A DNA stretch of 20,000 bases from an uncultured virus (IMG/VR IMGVR_UViG_3300045253_000007) (taxonomy: Duplodnaviria > Heunggongvirae > Uroviricota > Caudoviricetes): IMG/VR virus record IMGVR_UViG_3300045253_000007. One strand, given 5' to 3'. Positions 88 through 20,000 of the stretch are shown piece by piece (position 1 is the first letter of the stretch; each line of letters opens with the position of its first letter). A model generated the notes under the pieces. It was not told where the DNA came from and ran no database searches. It was given only the letters and a program-made list of their open reading frames with translations. The translations under genes were made by a program, and so were the position numbers.

Positions 88-178
88 GGAAGTCTAAGTC
101 AAGTTTGGCCTAATGACCACTGTCTTGAAAACAGTTGGGGAAGAAACGCCCGTGTGAGTTCAAGTCTCACGGCTTCCG
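88..178 (+). tRNA. tRNA-Ser(TGA)
   Basis: Acceptor GGAAGTC/GGCTTCC; anticodon arm ACTGT-CTTGAAA-ACAGT; long variable arm; T arm GTGAG-TTCAAGT-CTCAC; G73. Confidence 0.9.
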
Positions 179-179
179 C

Positions 180-208
180 TTGACACAGCCGGTAGGCTGT
201 GTTAGTAT
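180..208 (+). promoter_or_regulatory. SigA-type promoter overlapping an inverted repeat
   Basis: TTGACA(180-185)-N17-TAGTAT(203-208); ACACAGCC-GGTA-GGCTGTGT palindrome at 183-202. Confidence 0.75.
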
Positions 209-213
209 TAGTT

Positions 214-279
214 ACTGGTGGTAAAGAGTGAAAGTCGGTCAGGTGAGAATCCTGCGCACTAACTCCCTTTACCATTGGT
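214..279 (+). ncRNA. Small structured RNA with a T-loop-like hairpin (unassigned)
   Basis: 13-bp closing stem 214-226/267-279, AGTG/CACT inner stem, CAGG-TGAGAAT-CCTG hairpin; starts at the predicted transcription start. Confidence 0.45.
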
Positions 280-282
280 CAT

Positions 283-354
283 GTCAGTAGAGCATGTATG
301 GATATGCGCTAGGTTGAAGCCCTTGAAAACAAAGTTCAAGTCTTTGTACTGACA
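283..354 (+). tRNA. tRNA-Phe(GAA)
   Basis: Acceptor GTCAGTA/TACTGAC; anticodon arm CTAGG-TTGAAGC-CCTTG; T arm CAAAG-TTCAAGT-CTTTG. Confidence 0.8.
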
Positions 355-414
355 CAGGAACCAGAGAGGATACCCAGTATACAGGTGTTCTATTGTCAAA
401 GAAATCCTCTCAAT

Positions 415-485
415 GCAGCATTGGTATATGGGTTGTGCCCTTGCCTTCCACGCAAGAGAAGTGGGTTCGAATCCCGCATGCTGCT
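415..485 (+). tRNA. tRNA-Gly(TCC)
   Basis: Acceptor GCAGCAT/ATGCTGC, U73; CTTGC-CTTCCAC-GCAAG; GGTTCGAATCC T arm. Confidence 0.9.
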
Positions 486-519
486 CTGGGATGATGCATC
501 GTCCTAATATTTGATTGTT

Positions 520-591
520 GGTGGGTTCGTCTAGGGGCTCAGGACACCGGACTTTAATCCGGTAACGTTGGTTCGAATCCAACATCCGGCA
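520..591 (+). tRNA. Glu-like tRNA with a 6-nt anticodon loop (CTTTAA); possibly a pseudogene
   Basis: TTCGTCTAG...AGGACACCG D-arm typical of tRNA-Glu; CCGGA-CTTTAA-TCCGG; perfect T arm GTTGG-TTCGAAT-CCAAC; weak acceptor stem. Confidence 0.6.
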
Positions 592-602
592 ATAATCATT
601 AT

Positions 603-682
603 CCGTGTGTAATGGCGGTGGCTACGAACCACTAGTGCATAAAGGAATGAAAATGAGGGTTCGACTCCCTTCACGCGGTCCA
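603..682 (+). tRNA. D-armless tRNA-Arg(ACG)-like RNA with long variable region and encoded CCA
   Basis: Acceptor CCGTGTG/CACGCGG-T-CCA; only 7 nt replace the D arm; GGTGG-CTACGAA-CCACT; T arm GAGGG-TTCGACT-CCCTT. Confidence 0.7.
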
Positions 683-725
683 TCTACGAATTTGACTTTA
701 GTTCGTAGCGTGCTACTATCAACTC

Positions 726-1109
726 ATGAAACAGTGTAAGATTGATGGGTGCGATAGCACAGATTTGGCAACTAGAAGTTCTATGTGTAAAGAGCATCAT
801 AGGGAATATACTAGGGAACACTACAAAGCAAATAAAGTTGCTTATGTAGATAAAGCCAAAAGACACAGAAATTCTAATTCTGAACTTGTAAAAGAAGTCA
901 AGTCAATTCCATGTATGGATTGTGGAGTAAAATATCCTTACTATGTAATGGATTTAGACCACAGAGAAGATAAGAGTTTTGATATCAGTAGTCATCGCAG
1001 TAAGGGCAGATTACAAATCTTAGCAGAGATTGCTAAATGTGATGTAGTTTGTGCAAACTGTCACCGCATTAGGACATATGACCGTATGAGTGGTATACTG
1101 ATACCATGA
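726..1109 (+). CDS. HNH endonuclease
   Basis: CMDC...DLDH...CDVVCANCHRIRT HNH/zinc motif; preceded by TTGACT...TGCTACTAT promoter elements with the ATG at the predicted start (leaderless). Confidence 0.85.
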   Translation: MKQCKIDGCDSTDLATRSSMCKEHHREYTREHYKANKVAYVDKAKRHRNSNSELVKEVKSIPCMDCGVKYPYYVMDLDHREDKSFDISSHRSKGRLQILAEIAKCDVVCANCHRIRTYDRMSGILIP

Positions 1110-1264
1110 AAACATTTAGATATAGCGTCAGCATCGTCGTAGAGGTACCAGCCTTTAATGAGATAGATGCTGAGGAAGCAGTACGTGACGCATTCGGTCT
1201 TGGCGAGGTATGCGGCTTAGAAATCATCGAATCAGAGGTCGGAGACTTCACCCTTGCTAACTAA
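1106..1264 (+). CDS. Hypothetical acidic protein, 52 aa (MKTFRYSVSIVVEV...)
   Basis: ATGA overlap with the HNH stop; TG-TATACT -10 just upstream; not in the ORF track (<60 aa). Confidence 0.7.
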   Translation: MKTFRYSVSIVVEVPAFNEIDAEEAVRDAFGLGEVCGLEIIESEVGDFTLAN

Positions 1265-1385
1265 TGTCACTTGGTGCTCATTTTGTAGTAAGCGACCAAG
1301 CGACGGTATAGTAACTGTCGAAGACCGCGACGGACAGGTAATAGATTTAGCAGCCTGTACGTCTTGTTACAGAGCATTACTTTAA
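1254..1385 (+). CDS. Small CxxC...CxxC protein, 43 aa
   Basis: TTG start after GGAG; WCSFC...ACTSCY; stop abuts the next tRNA. Confidence 0.55.
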   Translation: MLTNVTWCSFCSKRPSDGIVTVEDRDGQVIDLAACTSCYRALL

Positions 1386-1458
1386 GGGCTTTTAGTGTTA
1401 ACGGGAGCACGCTTGTTTTGCAATCAAGTAGAGTCGGGTTCGAATCCCACATTGTCCA
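1386..1458 (+). tRNA. tRNA-Ala(TGC), degenerate
   Basis: G3:U70 pair; CTTGT-TTTGCAA-TCAAG; GGTTCGAATCC; mismatches in acceptor and T stems. Confidence 0.65.
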
Positions 1459-1514
1459 CATGACTAGAAAGGATACATATTATGACTTATAGGTAAATAA
1501 CTATAGGAGGTAAT

Positions 1515-1832
1515 ATGTCAGACTGGAAATATCGCGGCATCGTCAGGAGAGACTTCCGTAACGGCGGTGTTGAGATTGAAGATTTTGAAGACCCGCGCAT
1601 TCAGAAGCCTACCGGTGGCTACAAGAGTCAGCGTAAGGCTTGCAAGAAATCCAAGGACGGATTGCAGTGCGAGTTTTCTGAAAAGAAGGTCATTGGAACA
1701 CGATGGACCATTGACAGTGAGGCTGGAACGAGAGTTCCAAGCCTTCACATAATTGCTGTATGTCGCAGATGCGGAAAGTACAGTTGGGCTGGTAGATGGA
1801 GTTCTTACATCTACACAACCCTACAATTTTAA
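1515..1832 (+). CDS. Hypothetical basic Cys-containing protein
   Basis: 105-aa ORF with a strong AGGAGG RBS; CRRC motif. Confidence 0.75.
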   Translation: MSDWKYRGIVRRDFRNGGVEIEDFEDPRIQKPTGGYKSQRKACKKSKDGLQCEFSEKKVIGTRWTIDSEAGTRVPSLHIIAVCRRCGKYSWAGRWSSYIYTTLQF

Positions 1833-1866
1833 CTAAGACGGAACTGGCCGGTAAACCCAGAAACAT

Positions 1867-2043
1867 TTGAGAAATTACTGTAGCAAATGCAAGGCACGTA
1901 TCAAAGGTCACCTATGGATTGTCGGCAACGACGTTTACTGTGGCGCGTCTTGCCAGAGAAACGGTAAGTCACAATTTGAAAAGACTCGCTCTGCTTTGAA
2001 TAAGATGTTCAAAGAATACAGAGCGCCGACGCCTCAGGCGTAA
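1867..2043 (+). CDS. Small Cys-rich protein, 58 aa (MRNYCSKC...YCGASC)
   Basis: TTG-start ORF filling the gap before a hairpin; CxxC...CxxxC pattern. Confidence 0.55.
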   Translation: MRNYCSKCKARIKGHLWIVGNDVYCGASCQRNGKSQFEKTRSALNKMFKEYRAPTPQA

Positions 2044-2088
2044 TCTAGTGGCCGGTACATATCTCACGACTGTACCGGCTGCCACCAT

Positions 2089-2161
2089 GCCTTCGTAACT
2101 CAGGGGACAGAGTGAGAAGTTTCTACCTTCTTGGCCGCAGGTTCGAATCCTGCCGGGGGCA
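2089..2161 (+). tRNA. tRNA-Arg(TCT)
   Basis: GCCTTCG/CGGGGGC; AGAAG-TTTCTAC-CTTCT; GCAGG-TTCGAAT-CCTGC. Confidence 0.92.
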
Positions 2162-2265
2162 CTTGCATTGTCGTTGACAGTGTGGTAGTATGGTAGTTGT
2201 AACAAGGTGAGTTAACAACAAGCGTTCAGACAATCGGCTTGGCTCATTTATTTGGAAGGAAAACA

Positions 2266-3084
2266 ATGTCTATTACATTTTTAGGCACAGATTTTTCTGT
2301 GCCTATTTCTATGCAAGAACTGTATTCTGATAATACACCTAGAATCAAGATGGAAAATTTTGAGACGGTGTGTCAGAAGGCAGATACCGTCGTGGTTAAG
2401 CAAGGCTCTCTAGCAGAGTTTGTTAACGCGATGTTCTTGGTTGATTCTATTGCCTTAAAGGGCGGTAAGATTAGGAAGTTGATTCTTCCTTTCCTACCGG
2501 GTGCCCGACAGGATAGAGTTAATATAGACGGTGATGTTCTATTCACCGCTTCCTCAGTGGCGCAAATGATTAACTTGCGCGGCTTTGAGCAGGTCATTTC
2601 TGTTGACCCCCACTCCCGAGTAATGCCGGGATTCATCTACAACTTTGTCGAGTTTCCTCTCGCCAAGGTTTACGAGAAGTTGCCCAAGTCTTATGACGGA
2701 GTTATCGCTCCTGACAAGGGTGCTAAGGCTCGTGCCCGAACCGCTGCTCGTGTTCTGAATAAAACAGTCACGTACGCAGACAAGGTGCGCGACCCAGCGA
2801 CCGGTAGTCTATCAGGCTTTGCTGTCAACGTTGATGAAGACAAGCACTATATTGTCATTGATGATATAGCAGACGGTGGAGGCACGTTCCTTGGACTAGG
2901 AGAAAAGATTGCTGAACAAGGTGCCACGGCTGACCTTTACGTCACGCACGCTATCTTCTCAAAGGGAACAGACGACTTGAAAAAGATTTACAAGAACATC
3001 TACACAACAAATTCAATTAATAATGGACAGCGACCACTGGACGTAATCCGTCTGGACGTTGTGACAGAAATGGAGAAATACTAA
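2266..3084 (+). CDS. prs: Ribose-phosphate pyrophosphokinase family protein (candidate Adps of NARP1)
   Basis: PFLPGARQDR, VDPHS, APDKGA, VIDDIADGGGT, YVTHAIFS PRPP-synthetase motifs; ATG at 2266 follows GGAAGG. Confidence 0.9.
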   Translation: MSITFLGTDFSVPISMQELYSDNTPRIKMENFETVCQKADTVVVKQGSLAEFVNAMFLVDSIALKGGKIRKLILPFLPGARQDRVNIDGDVLFTASSVAQMINLRGFEQVISVDPHSRVMPGFIYNFVEFPLAKVYEKLPKSYDGVIAPDKGAKARARTAARVLNKTVTYADKVRDPATGSLSGFAVNVDEDKHYIVIDDIADGGGTFLGLGEKIAEQGATADLYVTHAIFSKGTDDLKKIYKNIYTTNSINNGQRPLDVIRLDVVTEMEKY

Positions 3085-4598
3085 TGTTTACGCTTAACCC
3101 GATTTTTCAGACGGACGGATACAAGTTGGACCACCGCCGTCAGTACCCGAAGGGTACACAGTACGTTTACTCAAACTGGACCGCTCGCGGTAGCCGAGTT
3201 CCCGGTATCAACAAGGTCACGTTCTTCGGCCTACAGTATGCGCTAAAGAAGTTGAACGATGAGTTTAAGGCTAACTTCTTCGCACGCGATGTAGACGAGG
3301 TTTGCAATGAGTATCAGGCAATGCTTGATTCTTTTCTAGGGCCGAACGATATCGGCACCGACCACATCAGGGCTTTGCATACTCTTGGCTACTTGCCTCT
3401 AGAGGTTAAGGCACTTCCCGAGGGTACCCGCGTTCCTCTCCGCGTTCCGATGCTTACCATCGAAAACACGCACCCGGAGTTCTTCTGGCTTACCAATTAC
3501 TTTGAGACAATCTTGTCTGCTGAGTTGTGGATGCCGATGACGAGCGCAACCGTTGCTTCTCACATTAGGCAAGACCTAAACGAGTGGGCATTGAAGACGA
3601 CCGGTAGCACCGAGGGCGTTGGTTTCAGCGGCCACGATTTCAGCATGCGAGGCATGGCCGGTGCTGAGGCTGCTATCGCTAGTGCCATGGGTCACCTTGT
3701 TGCCTTCACTGGCACCGAGACGGTTCCTGTTCTACAGGCTATTCCGTATTACTACCCCAACACAGGGTTCTTGGCCGGTACAGTTCCAGCAACAGAGCAC
3801 AGCGTTATGTGTGCAGGCGGTAAGGAAGACGAGACGGAGACATTCCAGCGTTTGCTAGATTTGTACCCGACTCAGATTCTAAGTGTCGTTTCTGACACAT
3901 GGGATTTCTGGAATGTTCTTACCAACATTCTTCCTAGCCTAAAGGACCAGATTCTTGCTCGCGGTGCAAACGGCGGTAAGTTGGTTGTACGTCCCGACAG
4001 CGGTGACCCTGCTGACATTATCTGTGGTACTAATGCTCAGGCAACTGATAATAACGGATGGGATTCTGTCGAAAAGGGTGCTATTCAGGTTCTCTGGGAT
4101 GAATTCGGCGGTACCATCAACGAGCAGGGCTACAAGGTTCTTAACCCAGCCGTAGGACTCATCTACGGTGACGCCATGAACCGTGGACGCATCAACAATA
4201 TTAACGAGCGTCTTGCAGCCAAGGGCTTCGCCAGCACAAACTGGGTCGCCGGTATTGGTAGTTTCAATTACCAATACCAGACTCGTGACACGTTCGGCTT
4301 TGCTATGAAGGCAACCAACGTTGTTATCGAAGATGAAGAAAAGGCTATCTTCAAGGACCCGAAGACAGACAATGGTTTGAAGAAGTCCCTAAAGGGTCGT
4401 ATCGGAGTCTTCACGCTAAAGAACGATGAGGACAACAGTCTTGTCAAGGGCAGCAAGGGCGACCTAGTTGCATTTGATGAACTCCGTAAGGATAGTAGCG
4501 CTTATGAAAATAGTCTGCTAGAGCCTGTGTTTAGGGATGGTGTCTTCATCAAGGAATGGACCTTTGATGAGGTTCGTGCAAACAGCGGACTCGTTTAA
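3084..4598 (+). CDS. nadV: Nicotinamide phosphoribosyltransferase family protein (candidate Namat of NARP1)
   Basis: TDGYKLDH, HDFSMRG, PATEHSVM, SVVSDTWD, VRPDSGDP, IYGD, KDPKTD NAMPT motifs; TAATG coupling to the prs-like gene. Confidence 0.95.
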   Translation: MFTLNPIFQTDGYKLDHRRQYPKGTQYVYSNWTARGSRVPGINKVTFFGLQYALKKLNDEFKANFFARDVDEVCNEYQAMLDSFLGPNDIGTDHIRALHTLGYLPLEVKALPEGTRVPLRVPMLTIENTHPEFFWLTNYFETILSAELWMPMTSATVASHIRQDLNEWALKTTGSTEGVGFSGHDFSMRGMAGAEAAIASAMGHLVAFTGTETVPVLQAIPYYYPNTGFLAGTVPATEHSVMCAGGKEDETETFQRLLDLYPTQILSVVSDTWDFWNVLTNILPSLKDQILARGANGGKLVVRPDSGDPADIICGTNAQATDNNGWDSVEKGAIQVLWDEFGGTINEQGYKVLNPAVGLIYGDAMNRGRINNINERLAAKGFASTNWVAGIGSFNYQYQTRDTFGFAMKATNVVIEDEEKAIFKDPKTDNGLKKSLKGRIGVFTLKNDEDNSLVKGSKGDLVAFDELRKDSSAYENSLLEPVFRDGVFIKEWTFDEVRANSGLV

Positions 4599-6471: not shown

Positions 6472-6472
6472 T
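6443..6472 (+). promoter_or_regulatory. SigA-type promoter for a tRNA cluster
   Basis: TTGACA-N18-TATGAT with an upstream TG. Confidence 0.65.
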
Positions 6473-6490: not shown

Positions 6491-6567
6491 GGTGGCCGTG
6501 GCGAAACGGTTAACGCGCTAGACTGTGAATCTAGTCAATGAGGGTTCGAATCCCTTCGGTCACCCCA
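6491..6567 (+). tRNA. tRNA-His(GTG)
   Basis: G-1:C73; CTAGA-CTGTGAA-TCTAG; encoded CCA. Confidence 0.93.
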
Positions 6568-6568
6568 T

Positions 6569-6642
6569 GCTTCGTTAGAGTAAACGGTTATCTCGCTTGC
6601 CTCTCACGCAAGAGAATACGGGTTCGAATCCCGTACGGAGTA
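6569..6642 (+). tRNA. tRNA-Glu(CTC)
   Basis: GCTTCGT/ACGGAGT; CTTGC-CTCTCAC-GCAAG; ACGGG-TTCGAAT-CCCGT. Confidence 0.9.
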
Positions 6643-6704
6643 CGTAATAAATGTGTGGTCTAGAAGCCACGAGCCGCTGGTATATCGGTTAGAATATACC
6701 ACTT

Positions 6705-6777
6705 GCGTCTGTAGTTATAGCGGTTAAAACATTCGGCTCTTACCCGAAGGTCCCCGGTTCGAATCCGGGTAGGCGTA
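6705..6777 (+). tRNA. tRNA-Lys(CTT)
   Basis: GCGTCTG/TAGGCGT; TTCGG-CTCTTAC-CCGAA. Confidence 0.9.
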
Positions 6778-6781
6778 CAAC

Positions 6782-6875
6782 GGTTAACACAAAATAGTTT
6801 CAGTGCCTTGAACAAGCGAGTGAGCGGCGGCTGTTCCCCGCCTAGGTGCTTCGGCCACCTAGCAAAGTGTTAGCC
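6782..6875 (+). ncRNA. Structured spacer RNA (unassigned)
   Basis: GGTTAACAC/GTGTTAGCC closing stem enclosing GGCGG/CCGCC and CTAGGTG/CACCTAG hairpins. Confidence 0.4.
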
Positions 6876-6951
6876 ATATTTTAATCTAGATGTAACGAGA
6901 GTCACATCAATCTGGCTGGAAGTCTTGACTTCCATCTGCTAGACTGGTAGT

Positions 6952-7098
6952 ATGAGAACATACGAAGAAGCACATGAGTTGGCGACGAAGGACGTTCAGC
7001 GTTTTGGTTCACTTCACGCAATGGATAAGGCAGATAGTCTTACCGGCGAAGTTGAAGAGGGATACCGAGACGGAATCATGTCAGTCTTCGCCAAGTAA
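6952..7098 (+). CDS. Hypothetical protein, 48 aa (MRTYEEAHELATKD...)
   Basis: Clean ORF just after a TG-n-TAGACT -10 element; leaderless context. Confidence 0.6.
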   Translation: MRTYEEAHELATKDVQRFGSLHAMDKADSLTGEVEEGYRDGIMSVFAK

Positions 7099-7134
7099 AA
7101 TAAATGGTCCTTTACAATGAAGTAAAGGATGCAT

Positions 7135-7205
7135 GGCCCGTTCGATTATTGGTAGGTCCAGTGTTTTTCAGGCACTAGAAAAGGGTTCGATTCCCTTACG
7201 GGCTA
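7135..7205 (+). tRNA. tRNA-Glu(TTC)
   Basis: GGCCCGT/ACGGGCT; AGTGT-TTTTCAG-GCACT; AAGGG-TTCGATT-CCCTT. Confidence 0.85.
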
Positions 7206-7212
7206 CGTTATA

Positions 7213-7370
7213 CAGCAGGATTGACTATCCGACAGTATTATCCGTCTTGACAGAAAGGGACGTTAAACACGGTTTCTGAGGGCTTGGCTAATTCACCACA
7301 GGAATTAGACGCTTTGATAGTTTCCGTTAGAGACTATACGGGCCGGGTCATGCCGGTAACAGGCTGCTAG
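7213..7370 (+). ncRNA. Multi-hairpin structured RNA (unassigned)
   Basis: At least four hairpins (7243-7262, 7288-7308, 7317-7337, CCGG/CCGG), possible CAGAAA/TTTCTG pseudoknot; no ORF. Confidence 0.45.
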
Positions 7371-7383
7371 TCACAGCCTTTAA

Positions 7384-7454
7384 TCAGATGTAGTGAAATG
7401 GTATCATGTTTGCTTGCCAAGCAAGCGGTGCGGGTTCGATTCCCGTCATCTGGA
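7384..7454 (+). tRNA. tRNA-Gly(GCC)
   Basis: TCAGATG/CATCTGG; TTTGC-TTGCCAA-GCAAG; GCGGG-TTCGATT-CCCGT. Confidence 0.85.
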
Positions 7455-7457
7455 CGC

Positions 7458-8245
7458 GAAAACTCACATCGATGCCTGCAAGCAAACGTGGTTTTGATAA
7501 CTAAATACATAGGGGCATGGCCCTGATAAGCAATCGCAAGATTGCGAAAGGTGGAGTGACACCCGCCGCCAGCAATGGTCAATTCATGCAATGCAAATCG
7601 TTAAGTAATATCCTATCAGATGTTGCAGTAACGTAAGCCACCCAGTCGATGTCCTATGGATGAGACTACCTGACAAGGTAAGAGGATAAACGGTGAGCGT
7701 TATGTTCGATACGCAGGGATATACGAATCCGAGGTTTGCAGCCAAGGGTGACTATCCATGAAACGTATGAAGTGGGCCGGTAGGCTCATGGGAGCGTAGA
7801 GATTGTAAGTAGCCGCAAGCGAAAGCATATTGAAGGAGTGAAGCATTCTTATTCTCAAAAGGAATCGGAACTTCGTGTTAAAGCACTTCTTCGTCAAGTC
7901 CCTTCGGGGCAGGGATTATATGCCCCGACATACAATGATAATGTATATCACAATATAAAGCAAAAGACTTTAACCCTGTGAGATGCGAAAGCGTCTTAAT
8001 GCCAGACCGAAAGGAATCTGGTGCAGAGGAAGGCCGCAAGCCCAATCTGTTTGGTATCAAAGTAGGAACCTTTAGCGGCTTAGCGGCTGCTCTTGTTTTC
8101 AAAATGAGCCGAGTAGCCTCACAGGTAAAGAGCGGTTGGCTTAACCAACTAGGCGCAGAGGCTACCGTAGCGATACGGTGGAAAAGCAACTAAACCATAC
8201 GGTTGCAAGAGGTCTCTATGTTAGGGTGAATTCTAAGCCCTCACA
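7458..8245 (+). ncRNA. GOLLD-like large ncRNA
   Basis: ~790 nt between tRNAs with no credible ORF; many GNRA/UUCG hairpins (7530-7545, 7980-7997, 8163-8180); long-range CCTGTGAG/CTCACAGG pairing; motif order TATTGAAG...CTCAAAAGG...AGCAAAAG...GAGTAG...GTGGA resembles GOLLD as I recall it. Confidence 0.7.
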
Positions 8246-8261
8246 CACCCTTCGGGGTCTT

Positions 8262-8331
8262 GGCGGTAGGGCACTGGTGTGCCGATATCTCTCATAAGGA
8301 TATGGGGTTGATTCGAATTCAACTACCGCTA
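8262..8331 (+). tRNA. tRNA-Met/Ile2(CAT)
   Basis: GGCGGTA/TACCGCT; TATCT-CTCATAA-GGATA; GTTGA-TTCGAAT-TCAAC; short D loop. Confidence 0.75.
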
Positions 8332-8333
8332 CT

Positions 8334-8408
8334 AGCGATAATGGAGAAAAGGTGTCTCGCAAGGCTCATAACCTTGAAATCGTCCGTTCGATTCGGAAGT
8401 CGCTCCCA
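8334..8408 (+). tRNA. tRNA-Met(CAT), initiator-like
   Basis: CAAGG-CTCATAA-CCTTG; AGCGAT/GTCGCT acceptor; TCCG-TTCGATT-CGGA; ends CCA. Confidence 0.75.
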
Positions 8409-8445
8409 GTTTGGTCGTTAGAAATTAATGTGATATACTAGATGT

Positions 8446-8790
8446 ATGGACACTAATGACATTGCATCCCTACAGGATATCGCCGCAGCGTATGAGGCGA
8501 TTGTATTGGCTGCTAAGACGATTATCAGTAACACCGCAGACAATGGTGTCGCTGATGCAGCAAATTGTGTCATCACAAGTGCTTCATCTGCGTTAGAGGA
8601 ACTATCAGAATATGTTAGTGACGATGACGAGGTTGACTTCGAAGGCAACGATGACGATGTTAATAACATTGCCACCAATGATTCAGGTGACCCGACAGAT
8701 GCATTTGCAGATGATGACGATAGAGAAACCAGTGCGGTATCCAAGGTTTGGACAGGTTCCAACCTAACACCGATGGGTTACACAAACTAA
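8446..8790 (+). CDS. Hypothetical highly acidic protein
   Basis: 114-aa D/E-rich ORF; ATG just after a TG-n-TATACT -10 (leaderless). Confidence 0.75.
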   Translation: MDTNDIASLQDIAAAYEAIVLAAKTIISNTADNGVADAANCVITSASSALEELSEYVSDDDEVDFEGNDDDVNNIATNDSGDPTDAFADDDDRETSAVSKVWTGSNLTPMGYTN

Positions 8791-8829
8791 ATAACCAGAT
8801 TGAACCACTGGTATAAAAGGGGTTCACGC

Positions 8830-8900
8830 CGCGCAGTGTACGGGGTATCCAACTGTCTGTAAAACAGAAGGCGAGGGTTCGATTCCCTCCTGCGCAACCA
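8830..8900 (+). tRNA. Atypical tRNA-Tyr(GTA)
   Basis: CGCGCAG/CTGCGCA-A-CCA (C1xA72 mismatch); CTGT-CTGTAAA-ACAG; GAGGG-TTCGATT-CCCTC; short variable loop, weak D arm. Confidence 0.75.
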
Positions 8901-8982
8901 TTAGGTAACTAGAAATCAACACCACCGAAATGTGAAATATGTAAGCGTGTTGTAGGTCAGGCCGGTACAGCCTGACTAACTT

Positions 8983-9054
8983 GGGGGATTAACTCAGCGG
9001 TAGAGTGCTGCTTTTGCAAGGCAGAAGTCATTGGTTCGAATCCTATATCCTCCA
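8983..9054 (+). tRNA. tRNA-Ala(TGC)
   Basis: GGGGGAT/ATCCTCC with G3:U70; CTGCT-TTTGCAA-GGCAG. Confidence 0.92.
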
Positions 9055-9056
9055 CG

Positions 9057-9129
9057 TTTAGGATAGTGTAAAGTAACACGCCAGCCTTTAACGCTGGTAA
9101 TGCGGATTAACGACCCGATTCTAACACCA
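9057..9129 (+). tRNA. tRNA-like gene with TTA anticodon (ochre-suppressor-like)
   Basis: D arm GTGT-AAAGTA-ACAC; perfect CCAGC-CTTTAAC-GCTGG anticodon arm; acceptor TTAGGA/TTCTAA; encoded ACCA; degenerate T arm. Confidence 0.6.
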
Positions 9130-9130
9130 T

Positions 9131-9202
9131 GGTCGTGTGGCCGAGTGGCTTAGGCACCTGTCTGCAAAACAGTTTACGTGAGTTCGAATCTCACCCTGAC
9201 CT
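9131..9202 (+). tRNA. tRNA-Cys(GCA)
   Basis: TGGCCGAGTGG D arm; CTGT-CTGCAAA-ACAG; GTGAG-TTCGAAT-CTCAC; U73. Confidence 0.88.
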
Positions 9203-9207
9203 CAAAA

Positions 9208-9238
9208 GAGCCGGTAGTCATTACGTGACTACCGGCTC
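9208..9238 (+). terminator. Inverted repeat, terminator-like, overlapping the next promoter
   Basis: GAGCCGGTAGTCA-TTACG-TGACTACCGGCTC perfect 13-bp stem; GTGACT-N17-TACAAT overlaps it. Confidence 0.6.
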
Positions 9239-9259
9239 GTTGTGTGTTACAATAGGTAC

Positions 9260-9664
9260 ATGAAGATAAAATTTGGATTCATAACGACAGCCTTCCTTAT
9301 AGCGAATGCTGCGTATGGTTTGGGGTTTGCTTTATTCAGCGGCGTAAATGCTTCTGGCGTAAGCAAGTCAAGTCTCTACAAATCTCTACATGAGACTTCT
9401 CAATCGCTACCGGCGCTCTGGGGTATTATTACCACCGTGGCGGTAGTTCTAGCCGTTGTGTACTCCAAATTTAACTACAAGGCCGTAGGAAGCCTCTCAG
9501 CAGCACTTGGGCTGGGAACGTGGCTGTTCGCCAGCCTTGTATATCTACAGACAGGCTTCGCCTTGACATTCATCACGGTTGGTCTGCTATACTTGTCGTT
9601 CTGGGTCTGGTTCTACTTCACGTATATCTCAAACCTAGATGTTAACAACAAACTGCGCCCATAG
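9260..9664 (+). CDS. Membrane protein (about 4 TM helices)
   Basis: Four hydrophobic segments; ATG 9260 sits 6 nt after TACAAT (leaderless start preferred over 9242). Confidence 0.8.
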   Translation: MKIKFGFITTAFLIANAAYGLGFALFSGVNASGVSKSSLYKSLHETSQSLPALWGIITTVAVVLAVVYSKFNYKAVGSLSAALGLGTWLFASLVYLQTGFALTFITVGLLYLSFWVWFYFTYISNLDVNNKLRP

Positions 9665-9726
9665 TTCAGCGGTAGAACGCTTGGTTCCGAACTAAGTGGG
9701 CGAGGGTTCGAATCCCTCTGGGCGCG
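9655..9726 (+). tRNA. tRNA-Arg(CCG)
   Basis: GCGCCCA/TGGGCGC; CTTGG-TTCCGAA-CTAAG; overlaps the last codons of the upstream CDS. Confidence 0.92.
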
Positions 9727-9730
9727 CAAA

Positions 9731-9867
9731 CGGTTAAGGACCGCATCCATGCCAAACCTCGTTGGCGACATAAACGAGGCAGTAGCCAAAAGCGGGTAAC
9801 AAAAGGTAATGCGTGTCGCGCTGACCTGAGTAGTGAAATCCGATTGGGAACCGGATAGCCTTAAACG
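9731..9867 (+). ncRNA. Pseudoknotted structured spacer RNA (unassigned)
   Basis: TTAAGG/CCTTAA closing stem; CCTCGTT/AACGAGG hairpin whose loop GCGACAT complements GTGTCGC (9813-9819); ATCCG/CGGAT hairpin. Confidence 0.5.
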
Positions 9868-9871
9868 TCAA

Positions 9872-9944
9872 GTCTCTGTAACTCAGTGGATAGAGTTTCT
9901 GTTTCCTAAACAGAGGGCCGCTGGTTCGAATCCAGTCAGGGACA
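9872..9944 (+). tRNA. tRNA-Arg(CCT)
   Basis: GTCTCTG/CAGGGAC; TCTGT-TTCCTAA-ACAGA. Confidence 0.92.
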
Positions 9945-9968
9945 CTCCTACTAGCCGAGAGGCGTGTA

Positions 9969-11091: not shown

Positions 11092-11454
11092 GGGGATGCC
11101 ATGGTATCGCCTCGGTGTAGAGAGAAATGAACGCAACCCGTGTTACGAAATGACAGACACGTTAAACAGTTATTTCAACAATAAATGCAAACGACGCAAT
11201 CGTTGCTAAGGCTATGGAAAACTTTGACTCTGAACTAGAGGCATTGCTTTCTGAGGCCGCTCTTATCTCTGCGTAAGTAGAATAAGACTAGGTACCGGCG
11301 ACCTAGCGAACCAAATGCCGGAATAGGAACTATCCTTAAATAGTTGGTGGACCCGGAGCAATCTGGCCTAGCAATACCGGGCGCGGTACGCAATGGTTGT
11401 ATAATGTTATTGATTAAAGCACTGAGTACGTGAGTTCGACTCTCACCATCTCCA
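11092..11454 (+). ncRNA. ssrA: tmRNA
   Basis: GGGGATG/CATCTCC-A acceptor with G3:U70; GTGAG-TTCGACT-CTCAC T arm; ATAAAT|GCA resume context; tag frame 11187-11276 ANDAIVAKAMENFDSELEALLSEAALISA*. Confidence 0.92.
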
Positions 11455-11563
11455 CGATTAGAGCGAAAGTAGTTTGGATTCAAAGTTCAAGGAGATTTTC
11501 AATAACCTACCAGCAGAGCAAAGGCGTGACATTTCAAACCGCTATCGTAAGTAGGAGGCAAGG

Positions 11564-12056: not shown

Positions 12057-12085
12057 TTGACATACCCAGCGCGGTAGTGTATAGT
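12057..12085 (+). promoter_or_regulatory. SigA-type promoter
   Basis: TTGACA-N17-TATAGT with GCGGTAGTG in the spacer. Confidence 0.8.
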
Positions 12086-12138: not shown

Positions 12139-12225
12139 TCTGGTAAGGCGACTGTTGGCTAGTCGCGGTTGGCTGTTAACCAACTCGGTTTGATTCCGTC
12201 TCAGGTTCGATTCCTGATTCCAGAG
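12139..12225 (+). tRNA. Atypical tRNA-Asn(GTT) with long variable arm and 6-bp D stem
   Basis: GCGACT/AGTCGC D stem; GTTGG-CTGTTAA-CCAAC; CGG-TTTGATT-CCG variable arm; TCAGG-TTCGATT-CCTGA. Confidence 0.8.
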
Positions 12226-12326
12226 CAAAGGCAGGGAACGCTACCGAATCTATTCCGTGGTGAGACTAGGGATGGAAAAGATATAAGATTGTTGTCTCAT
12301 CCAAATCTTATATCACGTATCCACAT

Positions 12327-12398
12327 TGGAGTGTAACTCAGCGGCAGAGTGGTCGGCTGTTAACCGACTTGTCGAAGGTTCGAATCCTTCCATTCCAG
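12327..12398 (+). tRNA. tRNA-Asn(GTT)
   Basis: TGGAGTG/CATTCCA-G; GTCGG-CTGTTAA-CCGAC. Confidence 0.93.
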
Positions 12399-12422
12399 CG
12401 TAAAATACAGATAAGGAACAAC

Positions 12423-12695
12423 ATGAGTTGGTCAGCAAGTTTTGACGTTGTTAATAATGACGTTGTTGAAGGTAGCGGTAGTGAATCAAACGTAGAGGTC
12501 GATTATCACAGTGACCAATACACGCAGGCAATAGTTGCTGCATTTGATTTGATTAACTCTGGTGTCTTCGGTGACCCAGACAACAATTCATTCAGGGTTA
12601 CTTTCAGTGGTCATGGCAATCCGGGACACGTTCCGCTTGCAGGTTGGTCAAATGATAGCATCTCTATCAGTATTTATCAGTTAAATAAAGTTTAG
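12423..12695 (+). CDS. Hypothetical protein, 90 aa
   Basis: ATG 12423 after AAGGA; the longer ORF-track start lies inside tRNA-Asn. Confidence 0.75.
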   Translation: MSWSASFDVVNNDVVEGSGSESNVEVDYHSDQYTQAIVAAFDLINSGVFGDPDNNSFRVTFSGHGNPGHVPLAGWSNDSISISIYQLNKV

Positions 12696-12910
12696 TTCGG
12701 AACCACGCGGGTAGAAATATCTGAGGAAAGTCCGGGCGGCAGGTAACAATCCATGTGGTAAAGACTAACTACCTCCCACTAAGCATAGCCTAAGAAGTAA
12801 TGTGAGGATGACGCAAGCGCAAACAGTTCTAGGGGTTACCACCTGTGATGAACGGGTAGCGTGCATAGTTAGATGTGGTTCTAAAACAGAACCCGGCTTA
12901 CGGAACTAAA
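12691..12910 (+). ncRNA. rnpB: Minimal RNase P RNA (bacterial type A-like catalytic domain)
   Basis: CR-I GAGGAAAGTCCGGGC (12723-12737); CR-V AACAGAACCCGGCTTA (12885-12900); CR-IV AGTTAGAT; P1 TTTAGTTC/GAACTAAA; P2 GGAACCAC/GTGGTTCT; P6 GGTAAC/GTTACC; L15 GGTA. Confidence 0.9.
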
Positions 12911-12928
12911 TATAACTTAATAAGCAGT

Positions 12929-13000
12929 GTTGGATTGGTGAACGCGGTATCACAGAGGCGTCGTATCCCTCAGTAAAGAGTTCAAGTCTCTTATCCAGCC
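12929..13000 (+). tRNA. tRNA-Thr(CGT)
   Basis: GTTGGAT/ATCCAGC; GAGGC-GTCGTAT-CCCTC (one mismatch); AAGAG-TTCAAGT-CTCTT. Confidence 0.7.
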
Positions 13001-13002
13001 CC

Positions 13003-13073
13003 GCCTCTTTCGCTTAATGGTAAAGCATCACTCTTGTAAAGTGAATCTATCAGTTCGATTCTGATAAGAGGCT
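13003..13073 (+). tRNA. tRNA-Thr(TGT)
   Basis: GCCTCTT/AAGAGGC; TCACT-CTTGTAA-AGTGA. Confidence 0.9.
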
Positions 13074-13078
13074 CGCAG

Positions 13079-13153
13079 GTCTCAGTAGTTCAGTGGTAGA
13101 ATACTTTCTTGGTACGAAAGTGGTCGAGGGTCCGATTCCCTCCTGAGGCCCCA
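13079..13153 (+). tRNA. tRNA-Thr(GGT)
   Basis: GTCTCAG/CTGAGGC-C-CCA; CTTTC-TTGGTAC-GAAAG. Confidence 0.88.
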
Positions 13154-13154
13154 T

Positions 13155-13228
13155 TTCTGGTTTTCTCTGTTGGCAGGGCGGCTTGGCTTTGAACCAAGTT
13201 TTCGTAGGTTCGATTCCTACACCAGAAG
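13155..13228 (+). tRNA. tRNA-Gln(TTG)
   Basis: TTCTGGT/ACCAGAA-G (U1:A72); CTTGG-CTTTGAA-CCAAG; GTAGG-TTCGATT-CCTAC. Confidence 0.85.
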
Positions 13229-13253
13229 CGAAGGACCAAAAGTCCTAACAGAT

Positions 13254-13285
13254 AGTAAAGCCTCGTAAGAGGCTTTACTGCTTTT
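13254..13285 (+). terminator. Rho-independent terminator
   Basis: AGTAAAGCCTC-GTAA-GAGGCTTTACT followed by GCTTTT. Confidence 0.7.
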
Positions 13286-13572: not shown

Positions 13573-13573
13573 A

Positions 13574-14968: not shown

Positions 14969-15000
14969 TTGACACGGTACCACCAAGTGTGGTACCGTGT
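14969..15000 (+). promoter_or_regulatory. Promoter overlapping a perfect inverted repeat
   Basis: TTGACA at 14969; ACACGGTACCAC-CAAGT-GTGGTACCGTGT. Confidence 0.6.
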
Positions 15001-15028
15001 TTCCGTACCCACAACACAAGGAGTTACT

Positions 15029-15514: not shown

Positions 15515-15779
15515 GTTCTACAAAGGTCCATATCATGGCAAGGTGCAAGAGCACCAGATAATGAGTTTTGACTTACCAATAATTGTCGATGTGCTACCTA
15601 AGCGTTTTAGTGCAACATATTTTAATGCCAGCACGTATTATCCTACAACCATTCAAACAGACCGACACATTTATCGAATTAGGATGATGGGTGTCAAAGA
15701 CTCTACCGGCAAGATGTATCAGGCACCAGCCATGCACCCGGATGGTAGTCTTTTCTACGTATACGAAGGAAAATACTAA
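15504..15779 (+). CDS. Hypothetical protein
   Basis: 91-aa ORF overlapping its neighbours in operon fashion; N-terminal FYKGPYHG. Confidence 0.75.
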   Translation: MKVKFYKGPYHGKVQEHQIMSFDLPIIVDVLPKRFSATYFNASTYYPTTIQTDRHIYRIRMMGVKDSTGKMYQAPAMHPDGSLFYVYEGKY

Positions 15780-16267
15780 TGTGGACACTAAAACAACTTA
15801 AGTTATTACTTCGCAAGAGCGGTGGTACAACTGACTTTAGCCAGAGTGCGGTGGTTGTCTGGCCGGTATTCTACCCGGAGGACATGTTCCCGCCAAACGA
15901 CCCACATGTTACCGTCCTTTACATGCCTGATGTTAGTAACACTAATAAGAAGGACGTGATTGACGCTATCAAGAAAACAGACTGGAACACAATGCCGCTG
16001 GCTCGCGTCAGTGGACAGGAGATGTTTGGTCCGTTGAAGGACACGCCGGTACTGACGTTGGACCACGATTTCCTTGAAGAATACTGGAATCAATTGCAGG
16101 GTGAGTTTCAACTCGCTGGTATTGAGTATTCTCAGAGGTTCCCAGAGTACCGACCGCACGTCACCATCACGCAGGATGCGGTAGCGTTTGACAATTTCCC
16201 GACGCAGTTTCTTCTAGCGCCGGTAGAACTTTGGTGGCAAGAGCAGAAGGTTTCCATCAGTGACTAG
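15779..16267 (+). CDS. 2H phosphoesterase (Acb1 / 2'-5' RNA ligase superfamily)
   Basis: Two HxT motifs: PHVTVLY and FPEYRPHVTI. Confidence 0.8.
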   Translation: MWTLKQLKLLLRKSGGTTDFSQSAVVVWPVFYPEDMFPPNDPHVTVLYMPDVSNTNKKDVIDAIKKTDWNTMPLARVSGQEMFGPLKDTPVLTLDHDFLEEYWNQLQGEFQLAGIEYSQRFPEYRPHVTITQDAVAFDNFPTQFLLAPVELWWQEQKVSISD

Positions 16268-18182: not shown

Positions 18183-18193
18183 AAGGAAATAAT

Positions 18194-18382
18194 ATGAGGC
18201 TTTGTGAAAATGAAACAACTGAGGTATATCAGAACTATGGAGAAGAACTAAGTATTCTTCTTATTGATACCGCTTTGAAGGTTAATGAACTAGAAAAGTC
18301 TGAGGACTACTCTTGGTTTAATCTGACAGTTCAGACTGATATCGAAGAAGGCTACATAGTAACTCTTTACGCTCACGGTTGA
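18194..18382 (+). CDS. Hypothetical acidic protein
   Basis: ATG 18194 after AAAGGA. Confidence 0.7.
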   Translation: MRLCENETTEVYQNYGEELSILLIDTALKVNELEKSEDYSWFNLTVQTDIEEGYIVTLYAHG

Positions 18383-18407
18383 CAATCACGCGCCGGTAGT
18401 GTATAGT
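18379..18407 (+). promoter_or_regulatory. SigA-type promoter for a tRNA cluster
   Basis: TTGACA-N17-TATAGT with GCCGGTAGTG in the spacer. Confidence 0.8.
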
Positions 18408-18453: not shown

Positions 18454-18536
18454 GCGCCATTGGTGAAACGGTAAACACAGTAGTCTTAGAAACTACCGCC
18501 CGGACGGGTTTGAGGGTTCGACTCCCTTGTGGCGCA
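18454..18536 (+). tRNA. tRNA-Leu(TAG)
   Basis: GCGCCAT/GTGGCGC-A; GTAGT-CTTAGAA-ACTAC; long variable arm. Confidence 0.92.
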
Positions 18537-18577
18537 CAAATCCTAGTTGACATACGACAACAATAGGAGGTATCAAA

Positions 18578-18727
18578 ATGAAAGATGTTTGTGAGTTCTG
18601 TTCCGATAAGGAATGTGACGGCATTCAAACATGGGGTTCCGACCCTTATGCAAGTGAGATTAACGGCGATGACACAGATTACTTTATGTGTGAAGGTCAG
18701 CGTTGGGAGTCTGCACAAGAGATTTAG
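18578..18727 (+). CDS. Small acidic Cys-containing protein, 49 aa (MKDVCEFC...DPYASEI...)
   Basis: AGGAGG RBS 8 nt upstream; clean ORF between tRNAs. Confidence 0.75.
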   Translation: MKDVCEFCSDKECDGIQTWGSDPYASEINGDDTDYFMCEGQRWESAQEI

Positions 18728-18790
18728 TCTAAACCGCGATACGTGTTGGAAGAGATACGTTAATGGGAGCGGTATAAAAGATACCAATAT

Positions 18791-18871
18791 GCCAGTGTGG
18801 TGTAACGGCAGCCACGGCAGTTTCAAACGCTGTTGCCTTCGGGCGTGAGGGTTCGACTCCCTTCACTGGTA
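18791..18871 (+). tRNA. tRNA-Leu(CAA)
   Basis: GCCAGTG/CACTGGT-A; GCAGT-TTCAAAC-GCTGT; variable arm GCC-TTCG-GGC. Confidence 0.9.
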
Positions 18872-18879
18872 CGTAATAA

Positions 18880-18964
18880 GGAAATGTGTCCGAGAGGCTT
18901 ATGGTACAAACTTGGAAAGTTTGTGTAGGTAAAACTACCGCAGGTTCGAATCCTGTCATTTCCG
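18880..18964 (+). tRNA. tRNA-Ser(GGA)
   Basis: GGAAATG/CATTTCC-G; CAAAC-TTGGAAA-GTTTG; long variable arm. Confidence 0.93.
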
Positions 18965-19019
18965 CTGGATATGTAAGTCGCTCAATACATATAGTTAAAT
19001 TGGGTGTTTTATCCAACTC

Positions 19020-19096
19020 GTCCGCGTGGTCAAATTAGGCAAAGGCGCTCGGCTTAGACCCGAGAGATTTTGTGGGTTCGATTCCCACCGTGGATA
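19020..19096 (+). tRNA. tRNA-Leu(TAG), short variable arm
   Basis: GTCCGCG/CGTGGAT-A; CTCGG-CTTAGAC-CCGAG; GTGGG-TTCGATT-CCCAC. Confidence 0.85.
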
Positions 19097-19104
19097 CGCA
19101 ACAT

Positions 19105-19179
19105 GGTTCTGTAGAGAATTGGCATATCGCTCTGGCTTAAAACTAGAGGTCATTGTGGGTTCGAATCCCACCAGAACTA
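19105..19179 (+). tRNA. tRNA-Leu(TAA), short variable arm
   Basis: GGTTCTG/CAGAACT-A; TCTGG-CTTAAAA-CTAGA. Confidence 0.85.
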
Positions 19180-19180
19180 C

Positions 19181-19360
19181 GCATCTATAGCACAACATTC
19201 TACTAAGGATATCCGGTAAGGAATAAACGAAGGTAAGCGCACCTTCAAAGTAGCCACAAAGAGAAAACTTAGACTCTAGGTAGTACGCGAATGCCATAAG
19301 AGGGAGTGCATCTCCCGACCGGGGAAAGTATTTTGGTATGAAATCCAGATAGGTGCTCCA
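19181..19360 (+). ncRNA. 180-nt RNA with tRNA-like acceptor stem, T-arm and encoded CCA (unassigned)
   Basis: GCATCTA/TAGGTGC-T-CCA; TTTGG-TATGAAAT-CCAGA T-like arm; multi-hairpin interior. Confidence 0.6.
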
Positions 19361-19361
19361 A

Positions 19362-19435
19362 GCGTCCGTAGTTTAATTGGAAAAACCGCAGGCTTTTACC
19401 CTGTCAGACTCTCGGTTCGAATCCGAGTGGGCGTA
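19362..19435 (+). tRNA. tRNA-Lys(TTT)
   Basis: GCGTCCG/TGGGCGT-A; GCAGG-CTTTTAC-CCTGT. Confidence 0.9.
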
Positions 19436-19581
19436 CGATACGAGTAAGAAATTATTCGTAAGGGGTAACCAATCCCACTTAGTACCTTCGCCGGTATGAT
19501 GTAAGAAGAAAACTTCAAATTGGAAAGTCCCATTAAATACAGACACACCGAGATGCGCGGTACGAGTATTGTGGGCAACAA

Positions 19582-19654
19582 GCGTCTGTAGCATAATGGT
19601 AAATGCCCTTGTCTTATATACAAGTTTATTTCGGTTCAACCCCGAACGGACGTA
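19582..19654 (+). tRNA. tRNA-Ile(TAT)
   Basis: GCGTCTG/CGGACGT-A; CTTGT-CTTATAT-ACAAG; TTCGG-TTCAACC-CCGAA. Confidence 0.82.
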
Positions 19655-19766
19655 CAATAATACGGTAGAAATTATATAAACTCTACCGGGCGGCACCAGA
19701 GTTCGCGCGACGGAATCGCTTAGACATAATCATTCGCAAGATGATGAGTAGACTAGCAAAAGACAG

Positions 19767-19839
19767 GTGCTATTAGTCTCAGTGGTAGAGCGCTTCCCCG
19801 ACACGGAAGAGGTCGAAGGTTCGAATCCTTCATAGCACA
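19767..19839 (+). tRNA. tRNA-Val(GAC)
   Basis: GTGCTAT/ATAGCAC-A; CTTCC-CCGACAC-GGAAG (C33 instead of U33). Confidence 0.88.
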
Positions 19840-19924
19840 CTACCCAAGTAAACCTAGGCGGTCTAATCACTACCGGGCTAACCTAGGGAGCCATTGGCTC
19901 GGGCAGGCATACAAAAGTGATTAT

Positions 19925-20000
19925 GGAAGATGAAACTTGATGGTGATGGTGCCTCCCTGCTAAGGAGTGCGGTCCTGAAAGGGGCTTAGGTTCGAGTCCT
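19925..20000 (+). tRNA. tRNA-Ser(GCT), truncated by window end
   Basis: GGAAGAT start; CTCC-CTGCTAA-GGAG; long variable arm; AGG-TTCGAGT-CCT. Confidence 0.85.

Follow-up and report, generated by a model that had tools for sequence, protein, structure and literature searches.

A predicted catalytic-domain-only RNase P RNA in the tRNA-rich region of an uncultured phage and in cultured Microbacterium phages

RNase P RNA is one of two universal ribozymes, and its specificity domain (S-domain; helices P7-P14) binds the elbow formed by the T-loop and D-loop of tRNA. Until now, to our knowledge, forms of bacterial-type RNase P RNA lacking this domain have come only from the laboratory, apart from those observed in a single archaeal family. 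The laboratory example is the engineered E. coli C-domain ribozyme (Eco CP RPR, delP18 form), for which the consulted sections of Mao et al. 2018 (PMC5839562) report that the S-domain-less design is catalytic, that its efficiency depends on a 'P6-mimic' pairing of the J5/7 region with the P17 loop, and that P18 is dispensable there. In type A RNase P, the GGU motif of L15 pairs with the 3' RCCA of tRNA, as is established and as stated in the portions used of PMC11143913 and PMC5839562. Here we describe a 20,000-nt stretch of DNA (hereafter the window) from the uncultured virus record IMGVR_UViG_3300045253_000007 (IMG/VR; Caudoviricetes), in which a predicted 228-nt RNase P RNA of the same reduced design lies among tRNA genes, together with a class II nucleotidyltransferase gene, a transfer-messenger RNA (tmRNA) gene, and a GOLLD RNA (Table 1). 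A first-pass annotation of this DNA had read the ribozyme, the nucleotidyltransferase (as a CCA enzyme), the tmRNA, and some 35 tRNAs as a self-contained module for tRNA maturation and translation rescue. We find a structurally intact and conserved RNase P catalytic core, and a nucleotidyltransferase with all class II catalytic motifs alongside tRNA and tmRNA genes of which most do not encode CCA, but the terms 'self-contained' and 'largely independent of host' are unsupported.

The RNase P RNA call itself is sound. The match to Rfam family RF00010 has an E-value of 8.6e-21 (73.2 bits) and spans model positions 1-367 within 228 nt. Helices P1-P3, both conserved P4 blocks, P5, and P15-P17 are retained in the Rfam alignment, in which the ~110 model positions of the S-domain are reduced to ~20 nt and the 24 model positions of P18 to 0 nt. 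What is left of the S-domain is a short remnant (Table 1) whose GTGG/CCAC stem pairs are invariant in 13/13 members of the family described below, with a cap ranging from 5 to ~80 nt.

BLAST of the ribozyme against phages returned 2 records only. In Microbacterium phage A3Wally, RF00010 detects an equivalent of 221 nt (93852-94072), exactly filling an unannotated gap between two annotated tRNA genes, and this copy was used to build our own covariance model (R1). The A3Wally-based model identified 13 members among viral and metagenome contigs with scores of more than 90 bits (104 bits for the window), as well as full, unannotated copies in the cultured Microbacterium phages Zooman (252 bits) and Big4 (250 bits), giving a total of 15 loci above 90 bits with a GC content of 46-58%. 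RF00010, applied with strict filters to more than 2 Mb, missed the Zooman and Big4 copies, both of which our model recovered. The Rfam gathering cut-off and fast filters miss the mini ribozyme, and current phage annotations therefore overlook it; surveys at default settings will undercount it. Among cellular genomes (one representative for each of ~186,000 prokaryotic species), 12 signature matches were found, none of which (0/12) is a compact member.

Further shortened RNase P RNAs of 207-300 nt stand beside tRNAs in other viral contigs. One of 270 nt (L092:1-312) begins at the exact base where the tmRNA 3' end stops. Another compact RNA (L118:152-869) seems to be interrupted in the remnant region by a ~400-nt insertion, which separates a 5' part (152 to ~330) from a 3' part (730-869).

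Covariation was assessed in the 13 members, Zooman and Big4 not being among them. A MAFFT and RNAalifold alignment was rejected because P2 and P3 were misaligned and P2 was traded for P4, and a model-guided alignment was used instead. In this alignment, 97.2% of cells pair, compared with 36-42% when partners are slid, and changes on both sides are seen in 24/45 pairs, values reached by 0/500 shuffles, although these nested-helix counts come from an alignment fitted to our own model, which inflates pairing. Helices P1, P2, P3, P5, P15, P16, and P17 have covariation support. P4 and P6 lie outside the model and are free of this bias: all 7/7 pairs of P4 are invariant in the 13 members, the universally conserved blocks being present on both of its strands, and P6 forms 6-8 contiguous bp in 13/13 members using 10 distinct strand sequences, with non-cognate strand combinations forming a mean of 4.6 bp. 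Across the 13 members, 78/228 window residues are invariant and are concentrated in P4, the CAA of J5/15, the GGGUA of L15, and J2/4. Taken from comparative sequence data, this pattern argues that the mini RNase P RNA is a genuine, conserved type A ribozyme under selection, and not a relic.

The position of the ribozyme suggests how it could be made. A tRNA 5' end lies no more than 12 nt past the ribozyme 3' end in 8/13 loci, and in A3Wally-type copies tRNAs abut both ribozyme ends, so that RNase P, in cutting at the tRNA that follows, would also make the ribozyme 3' end; the ribozyme would thus probably be freed by tRNA processing. In the window, a near-consensus promoter-like site (12057-12085, 11/12 matches) precedes two tRNA-Asn genes, the ribozyme, three tRNA-Thr genes, and a tRNA-Gln gene, with which the ribozyme is probably co-transcribed from near 12057. 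A hairpin beyond the tRNA-Gln gene, read directly in the sequence (Table 1) and not called by a terminator scan that needs 5 T in 8, is a possible end of this unit, and the ribozyme and its flanking tRNAs would then form a single transcription unit. In the A3Wally GenBank record (MZ150783.1 84000-104000, L005), tRNA labels seem to take the anticodon as the codon: the record gives tRNA-Pro(ccg) and tRNA-Pro(cct) for the genes on either side of the ribozyme, and ARAGORN reads them as tRNA-Arg with anticodons ccg and cct.

Class II nucleotidyltransferases carry catalytic and templating motifs designated GGxVRD...DxD, RRD, EDxxR, and a flexible loop. The window enzyme, whose PolyA_pol head bears out the class II assignment made earlier, has GGAVRD...DLD, RRD, EDALR, and a YTDGRRPDKVE loop. 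These align to two solved structures of CCA-adding enzymes, 6ibp and 1miv, in which the alignments reach no further than chain residue ~242 of 404-420. The tRNA-binding body and tail domains are absent (280 aa versus 390-420), a basic, Cys-rich tail standing in their place. CCA-adding enzymes rank highest among its matches, which also include poly(A) polymerase and A-adding models, and the score against the NCBIfam equivalog NF009814 is 141.6 bits versus a cut-off of 290. The enzyme is a member of the short phage family phrog_24229, and a single-protein search of viral contigs returned no relatives.

Most tRNA genes were said to end at the discriminator without CCA, which is true insofar as CCA is absent in 26/30 tRNAs, but C74 directly follows the discriminator in 29/30. 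C74 is likewise encoded in 44/44 tRNAs of Cece, 30/31 of Racecar, and 20/20 of Cellulophaga phage phi4:1_13, and cyanophages have T74 instead (11/12 in B23). C74 without C75-A76 is seen in actinophages and a Cellulophaga phage whether the ribozyme is present or not (loci L175-L187). Leaders of the window tRNAs have C at -3 in 20/30, A at -2 in 19/30, and U at -1 in 19/30. C74 and the YAU leader were considered as signatures of ribozyme-bearing phages and rejected, as they are equally strong in ribozyme-less phages and differ only in cyanophages. These features suit an RNase P with a GGU motif generally, of host or phage, and by analogy with established type A biology C74 would pair with the conserved G of L15.

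Whether these parts travel together was surveyed in related phages, with mixed results. Among the 11 GenBank phages encoding a relative of the enzyme, 10 have 7-44 tRNAs and three (A3Wally, Zooman, and Big4) have the ribozyme. It was not found by our own model in Cece, Talia1610, or Racecar, nor by an Rfam search, the only one applied to them, in B23, phi4:1_13, S-CBWM1, XaC1, or MT835470. Conversely, the enzyme is present in 3/3 whole records found via the ribozyme, but 55-66 kb distant from it. The tmRNA is patchy: it scores above the cut-off together with the ribozyme in G001 (locus L116) and in L132 and does not in A3Wally, G002, Zooman, or Big4, amounting to 1/5 ribozyme-bearing whole records plus L132. 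The RNase P protein RnpA (PF00825) was found in 0/5 ribozyme-bearing whole phage records, the control being positive in 10/14 genomes, and in none of the 24 open reading frames (ORFs) of the window. Pfam, NCBIfam, and PHROGs revealed no 3' endonuclease, RNA ligase, or SmpB in the 20-kb window, and a scan of the unassigned window ORFs for RnpA, nuclease, and ligase returned nothing up to E 1. Since no RnpA gene is seen in the five records or in the window, host RnpA is the likeliest protein partner of the ribozyme. The four-part set recurs in some lineages only; its parts resemble accessories that tRNA-rich phages gained independently, and amount to a loosely associated kit rather than a single inherited module.

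The explanation that we favour with moderate confidence is that the window encodes a genuine catalytic-domain-only type A ribozyme partnered by host RnpA which, with the nucleotidyltransferase, forms a loose kit supplementing host maturation. By analogy with the engineered C-domain (PMC5839562), the mini ribozyme is expected to cleave pre-tRNA 5' leaders. The lengthened P6 (6-8 bp) would stabilise the core and compensate for the lost domain contacts; the RNA would most likely assemble with host RnpA and add 5'-leader-cutting capacity for the abundant phage pre-tRNAs and pre-tmRNA; and the short nucleotidyltransferase would most likely complete encoded N73-C74 ends to CCA, or repair ends. The window as a whole is, on this explanation, the stable-RNA and auxiliary-gene region of a large phage of a lineage so far unsampled, given that whole-window megablast against GenBank phages gave tRNA-sized matches only.

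Several observations weigh against this explanation. The RF00010 score lies below the gathering threshold of 100 bits, the match having been found via E-value reporting; the shortfall arises because the S-domain and P18 are absent (~140 model positions). P5 of the window copy carries a G-A mismatch, and the single-sequence fold energy of the ribozyme does not improve on shuffles (z -0.31) and offers no support, as expected for a pseudoknotted RNA. To these must be added the inflated nested-helix counts noted above. Cece (37 tRNAs), Talia1610, and Racecar combine the enzyme with large tRNA sets without the ribozyme, which is therefore dispensable. C74 and the leader features are alike in phages with and without the ribozyme and have no specific tie to it. 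Finally, PMC5839562 gives a rate for the engineered S-domain-less ribozyme ~120-fold below that of the full-size RNA, and a gain in capacity is thus not assured.

A more far-reaching version, which we put forward tentatively and consider rather doubtful, is that a natural catalytic-domain-only phage ribozyme with an enlarged P6 captures host RnpA and, with the body-less CCA enzyme, makes up an acceptor-end-only pair that would keep maturation of phage tRNA, tmRNA, and tRNA-like RNAs going if host RNase P were saturated, shut off, or targeted.

Alternatively, the mini ribozyme and the body- and tail-less enzyme, each lacking the parts that recognise the tRNA elbow, may be specialised for substrates that are damaged or consist of an acceptor stem alone and are poorly processed by host enzymes; tmRNA, tRNA-like elements, GOLLD flanks, or nicked tRNAs could be among these. 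The loss of the S-domain and the termination of the enzyme after its neck domain are both consistent with this, as are the odd tRNA-like genes of the window (89-177, 519-592, 1386-1458, 9057-9126, and 12139-12226), its tmRNA, its tRNA-flanked GOLLD RNA, the placement in L092 of a shortened ribozyme directly after a tmRNA 3' end, and the cleavage of hairpin model substrates by the engineered C-domain, as recounted in the relevant section of PMC5839562. However, the short enzyme family is widespread in ribozyme-less phages, and the neighbouring substrates are mostly ordinary cloverleaf tRNAs scoring 40-72 bits; we regard this specialization as unlikely.

The module of the first-pass annotation, co-inherited and rendering the phage tRNA pool largely host-independent, has in its favour the presence of all four parts within 20 kb on one strand of the window, their joint presence in the IMG/VR record G001, and the enzyme in each whole record found via the ribozyme. 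Against it stand the absence of RnpA from the five records, and of a recognisable 3' nuclease or SmpB from the window, the occurrence of the ribozyme in a minority of enzyme-bearing phages, its distance from the enzyme in relatives, and the tmRNA-less A3Wally, Zooman, Big4, and G002; in this strong form it is decidedly unlikely, and we return to the loose, host-dependent kit.

It is improbable that the RNA has no enzymatic role for the phage and serves as a decoy, sequestering host RnpA so that tRNA maturation in the host is shut down or redirected: RnpA was not found in the phage records and the presumed protein-binding regions of type A RNAs (P2-P4 and the J18/2 equivalent) are kept, but the invariant P4 active-site helix, L15 GGU, and J5/15 CAA are conserved though a decoy needs none of them, and the phage's own tRNAs also require RNase P. 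A functionless, decaying fragment of host rnpB acquired by chance, as might be proposed from the sub-gathering score, the missing half of the molecule, and its absence from close relatives such as Cece in our search, is highly improbable and all but refuted because of conservation and covariation under selection across 15 members in at least three diverged lineages (compensatory changes, invariant residues, covarying P6 sequences), with an identical, precise loss of the S-domain and P18 throughout and no compact cellular counterpart among the pattern matches.

Coordinates of all features of the window are summarized in Table 1; all recognisable genes are on the + strand.

Table 1. Features of the 20,000-nt window, with positions counted from its first letter and the supporting evidence.
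Feature	Position	Strand	Evidence or remark
Predicted mini RNase P RNA, type A catalytic domain only, 228 nt	12689..12916	+	RF00010; own model R1 104.4 bits
P4 5' strand and J3/4 conserved block	12723..12737	+	Invariant in 13/13 members
P6 pseudoknot 5' strand, GGTAAC	12742..12747	+	Pairs with 12835-12840
S-domain remnant, ~50 nt	12755..12809	+	4-bp stem GTGG/CCAC with variable cap, then conserved TAAGC... hairpin region
P6 pseudoknot 3' strand, GTTACC, in P17 loop	12835..12840	+	
L15 GGGUA	12854..12858	+	CGGGTA invariant in 13/13
J2/4 and P4 3' strand conserved block	12886..12901	+	Invariant bar one column
Hairpin AAAGCCTC-GTAA-GAGGCTTT, then T-rich ACTGCTTTT	13257..13285	+	Read directly in sequence
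Class II tRNA nucleotidyltransferase, head and neck only, 280 aa	17340..18182	+	PF01743 72.4 bits (cut-off 23); phrog_24229 166.5 bits
tmRNA, 29-codon tag reading frame	11092..11457	+	RF00023 94.3 bits (gathering 47); ARAGORN
GOLLD RNA (conserved part)	7831..8240	+	RF02032 188.3 bits (gathering 150), E 5.8e-52
tRNA cluster: class II tRNA-like 89-177, Phe 283-355, Gly 415-486, odd tRNA 519-592	88..592	+	ARAGORN, Rfam
tRNA-like 1386-1458 (Rfam only), tRNA-Arg(tct) 2089-2162	1386..2162	+	ARAGORN, Rfam
tRNAs His, Glu, Lys, Glu, Gly	6492..7455	+	ARAGORN, Rfam
tRNAs Met x2, Tyr, Ala, tRNA-like 9057-9126, Cys, Arg x2	8262..9945	+	ARAGORN, Rfam
tRNA-Asn x2 (first 88 nt), upstream of ribozyme	12139..12399	+	ARAGORN
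tRNA-Thr x3 and tRNA-Gln, from 12 nt past ribozyme	12929..13229	+	ARAGORN
tRNAs Leu x4, Ser, Lys, Ile(tat), Val, and one truncated tRNA at window end	18454..20000	+	ARAGORN, Rfam
HNH endonuclease	726-1109	+	Within tRNA array; Pfam/NCBIfam/PHROGs
PRPP-synthetase-like and NAMPT-like gene pair	2239-4598	+	
ATP-dependent DNA ligase	4598-5530	+	
RyR-domain protein	13559-13972	+	
DarG-like macro domain protein	14969-15514	+	NCBIfam 89 bits, under cut-off
2H phosphoesterase	15779-16267	+	Weak Acb1 / LigT / 2'-5' RNA ligase matches

The tmRNA is real, its score being well above the gathering threshold. ARAGORN reads its tag as ANDAIVAKAMENFDSELEALLSEAALISA up to the stop; the acceptor stem (GGGGATG/CATCTCC) is tRNA-Ala-like with a G3-U pair, as expected of an RF00023 member, and the 3' end reads A-CGA. 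The tag is atypical in its 29 residues and LISA end; the ribozyme-adjacent tmRNAs of L116 and L132 encode the 12-residue ANASRNDFALAA with an ALAA end. The GOLLD RNA, a component missing from the earlier list, lies between tRNA-Gly (7384-7455) and tRNA-Met (8262-8332) and probably extends upstream into the ORF-poor gap 7456-8261. GOLLD was found in 0/13 related records, but the control was silent in that search, which makes the result uninformative.

ARAGORN identified 30 tRNA genes and one tmRNA in the window, all on the + strand, and Rfam returned 31 tRNA matches at the gathering score. The union comprises 33 tRNA or tRNA-like genes, of which 28 are common, 2 are found by ARAGORN only (12139-12226 and 12929-13002), and 3 by Rfam only (89-177, 1386-1458, and 9057-9126). 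With a sub-threshold tRNA truncated by the window end (19926-20000, 21 bits), an estimate of about 35 is fair. That the genes are packed a few nucleotides apart holds for 7/30 ARAGORN junctions (no more than 7 nt), but most spacers are 50-500 nt or contain ORFs. A near-consensus promoter-like site (6443-6472) precedes the group beginning with tRNA-His, and another promoter-like site (18379-18407) precedes the last group. The atypical tRNA-like genes, whose positions are given above, include one of class II or Sec-like form that ARAGORN did not call, one with a 2-nt anticodon call, the 88-nt tRNA-Asn, and two Rfam-only genes.

Names of window proteins were assigned from Pfam, NCBIfam, and PHROGs. 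The HNH endonuclease has 43% identity to an HNH inside the A3Wally tRNA array, and the PRPP-synthetase-like and NAMPT-like genes (NF006629 518 bits; phrog_448 620 bits) have 38% and 50% identity, respectively, to an A3Wally pair. The window pair presumably resembles the phage NAD+ reconstitution pathway (NARP1). The DarG-like macro-domain gene adjoins the 2H phosphoesterase gene. A macro-domain gene is also found in the tRNA/ribozyme region of L143, L117, A3Wally, Zooman, and Big4 (tblastn E 1e-21 to 1e-26) and could serve in anti-DarT counter-defence or take part in the handling of RNA-repair by-products. Atlas matches for a 330-aa window ORF were at chance level (0.82).

A conserved phage version of this RNA would show that the catalytic domain alone is viable as an enzyme in nature, would put the 'P6-mimic' result to an evolutionary test, and would place RNase P among the translation-related functions of large phages. 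Bench experiments can address the question directly, since unannotated copies exist in the cultured, non-pathogenic Microbacterium phages A3Wally, Zooman, and Big4, and Cece is a relative that naturally lacks the ribozyme.

The individual surroundings of the ribozyme have precedents. Closely spaced tRNAs, some without CCA and with RNase P cutting between them, are known from the phage T4 tRNA cluster, but T4 relies on host RNase P, and the T4 passages of PMC11143913 do not mention a phage-encoded RNase P RNA. Mycobacterial horizontally transferred tRNA clusters, with a presumed phage origin, resemble the window in combining a tRNA cluster, GOLLD RNA, and an HNH endonuclease, an association thus already known; the sole RNase P RNA mentioned in the extracts consulted is the host rnpB, with no reduced second copy (Behra et al. 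2019, PMC6582537). CCA-adding enzymes of jumbo phages are also known and have been read as RNA repair (Iyer et al. 2021, PMC7824862, in part); these and phrog_24229 share with the window enzyme the class II head domain of the Pol-beta superfamily, from which the window enzyme, at 280 aa, departs in that a basic, Cys-rich tail replaces the body and tail. 'RNase P' and tmRNA each have 0 occurrences in that jumbo-phage overview. The phage, viral, and minimal-RNA passages of a 2024 RNase P review (PMC11143913) do not mention a phage-encoded RNase P RNA, and our literature search, which covered sources outside subscription journals and closed supplements, found no description of one.

For the ribozyme itself, the most familiar comparison is E. 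coli M1 RNA (rnpB, RF00010), with which the phage RNA shares the P4 blocks, P1, P2, P3, P5, P6, P15-P17, L15 GGU, and J5/15 CAA. It differs in length (228 nt versus ~370), in lacking the S-domain and P18, in a P6 of 6-8 bp as opposed to the 4 bp given for E. coli in the corresponding part of PMC5839562, and in being phage-encoded inside a tRNA array, its cognate protein gene not having been found in the records searched. The archaeal type T RNase P RNA of Thermoproteaceae/Pyrobaculum, as outlined in sections of PMC5839562 and PMC3579882, likewise has a degenerate S-domain, retains P6, and has no P18, but belongs to an archaeal lineage with archaeal protein partners, whereas the phage RNA bears bacterial type A sequence signatures; the two appear to have arisen independently. 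The layout of Eco CP RPR, as described in the same sections of PMC5839562, is shared exactly (no S-domain, no P18, and a P6 pairing between J5/7 and the P17 loop), with the difference that Eco CP RPR is a laboratory construct, and the phage RNA, known from sequence alone, is natural, with a longer P6 and a conserved two-hairpin S-domain remnant. Compared with these systems, the tRNA array, the tmRNA, the CCA enzyme, and the GOLLD-tRNA association were already known, and the mini ribozyme is a new natural variant of a known ribozyme.

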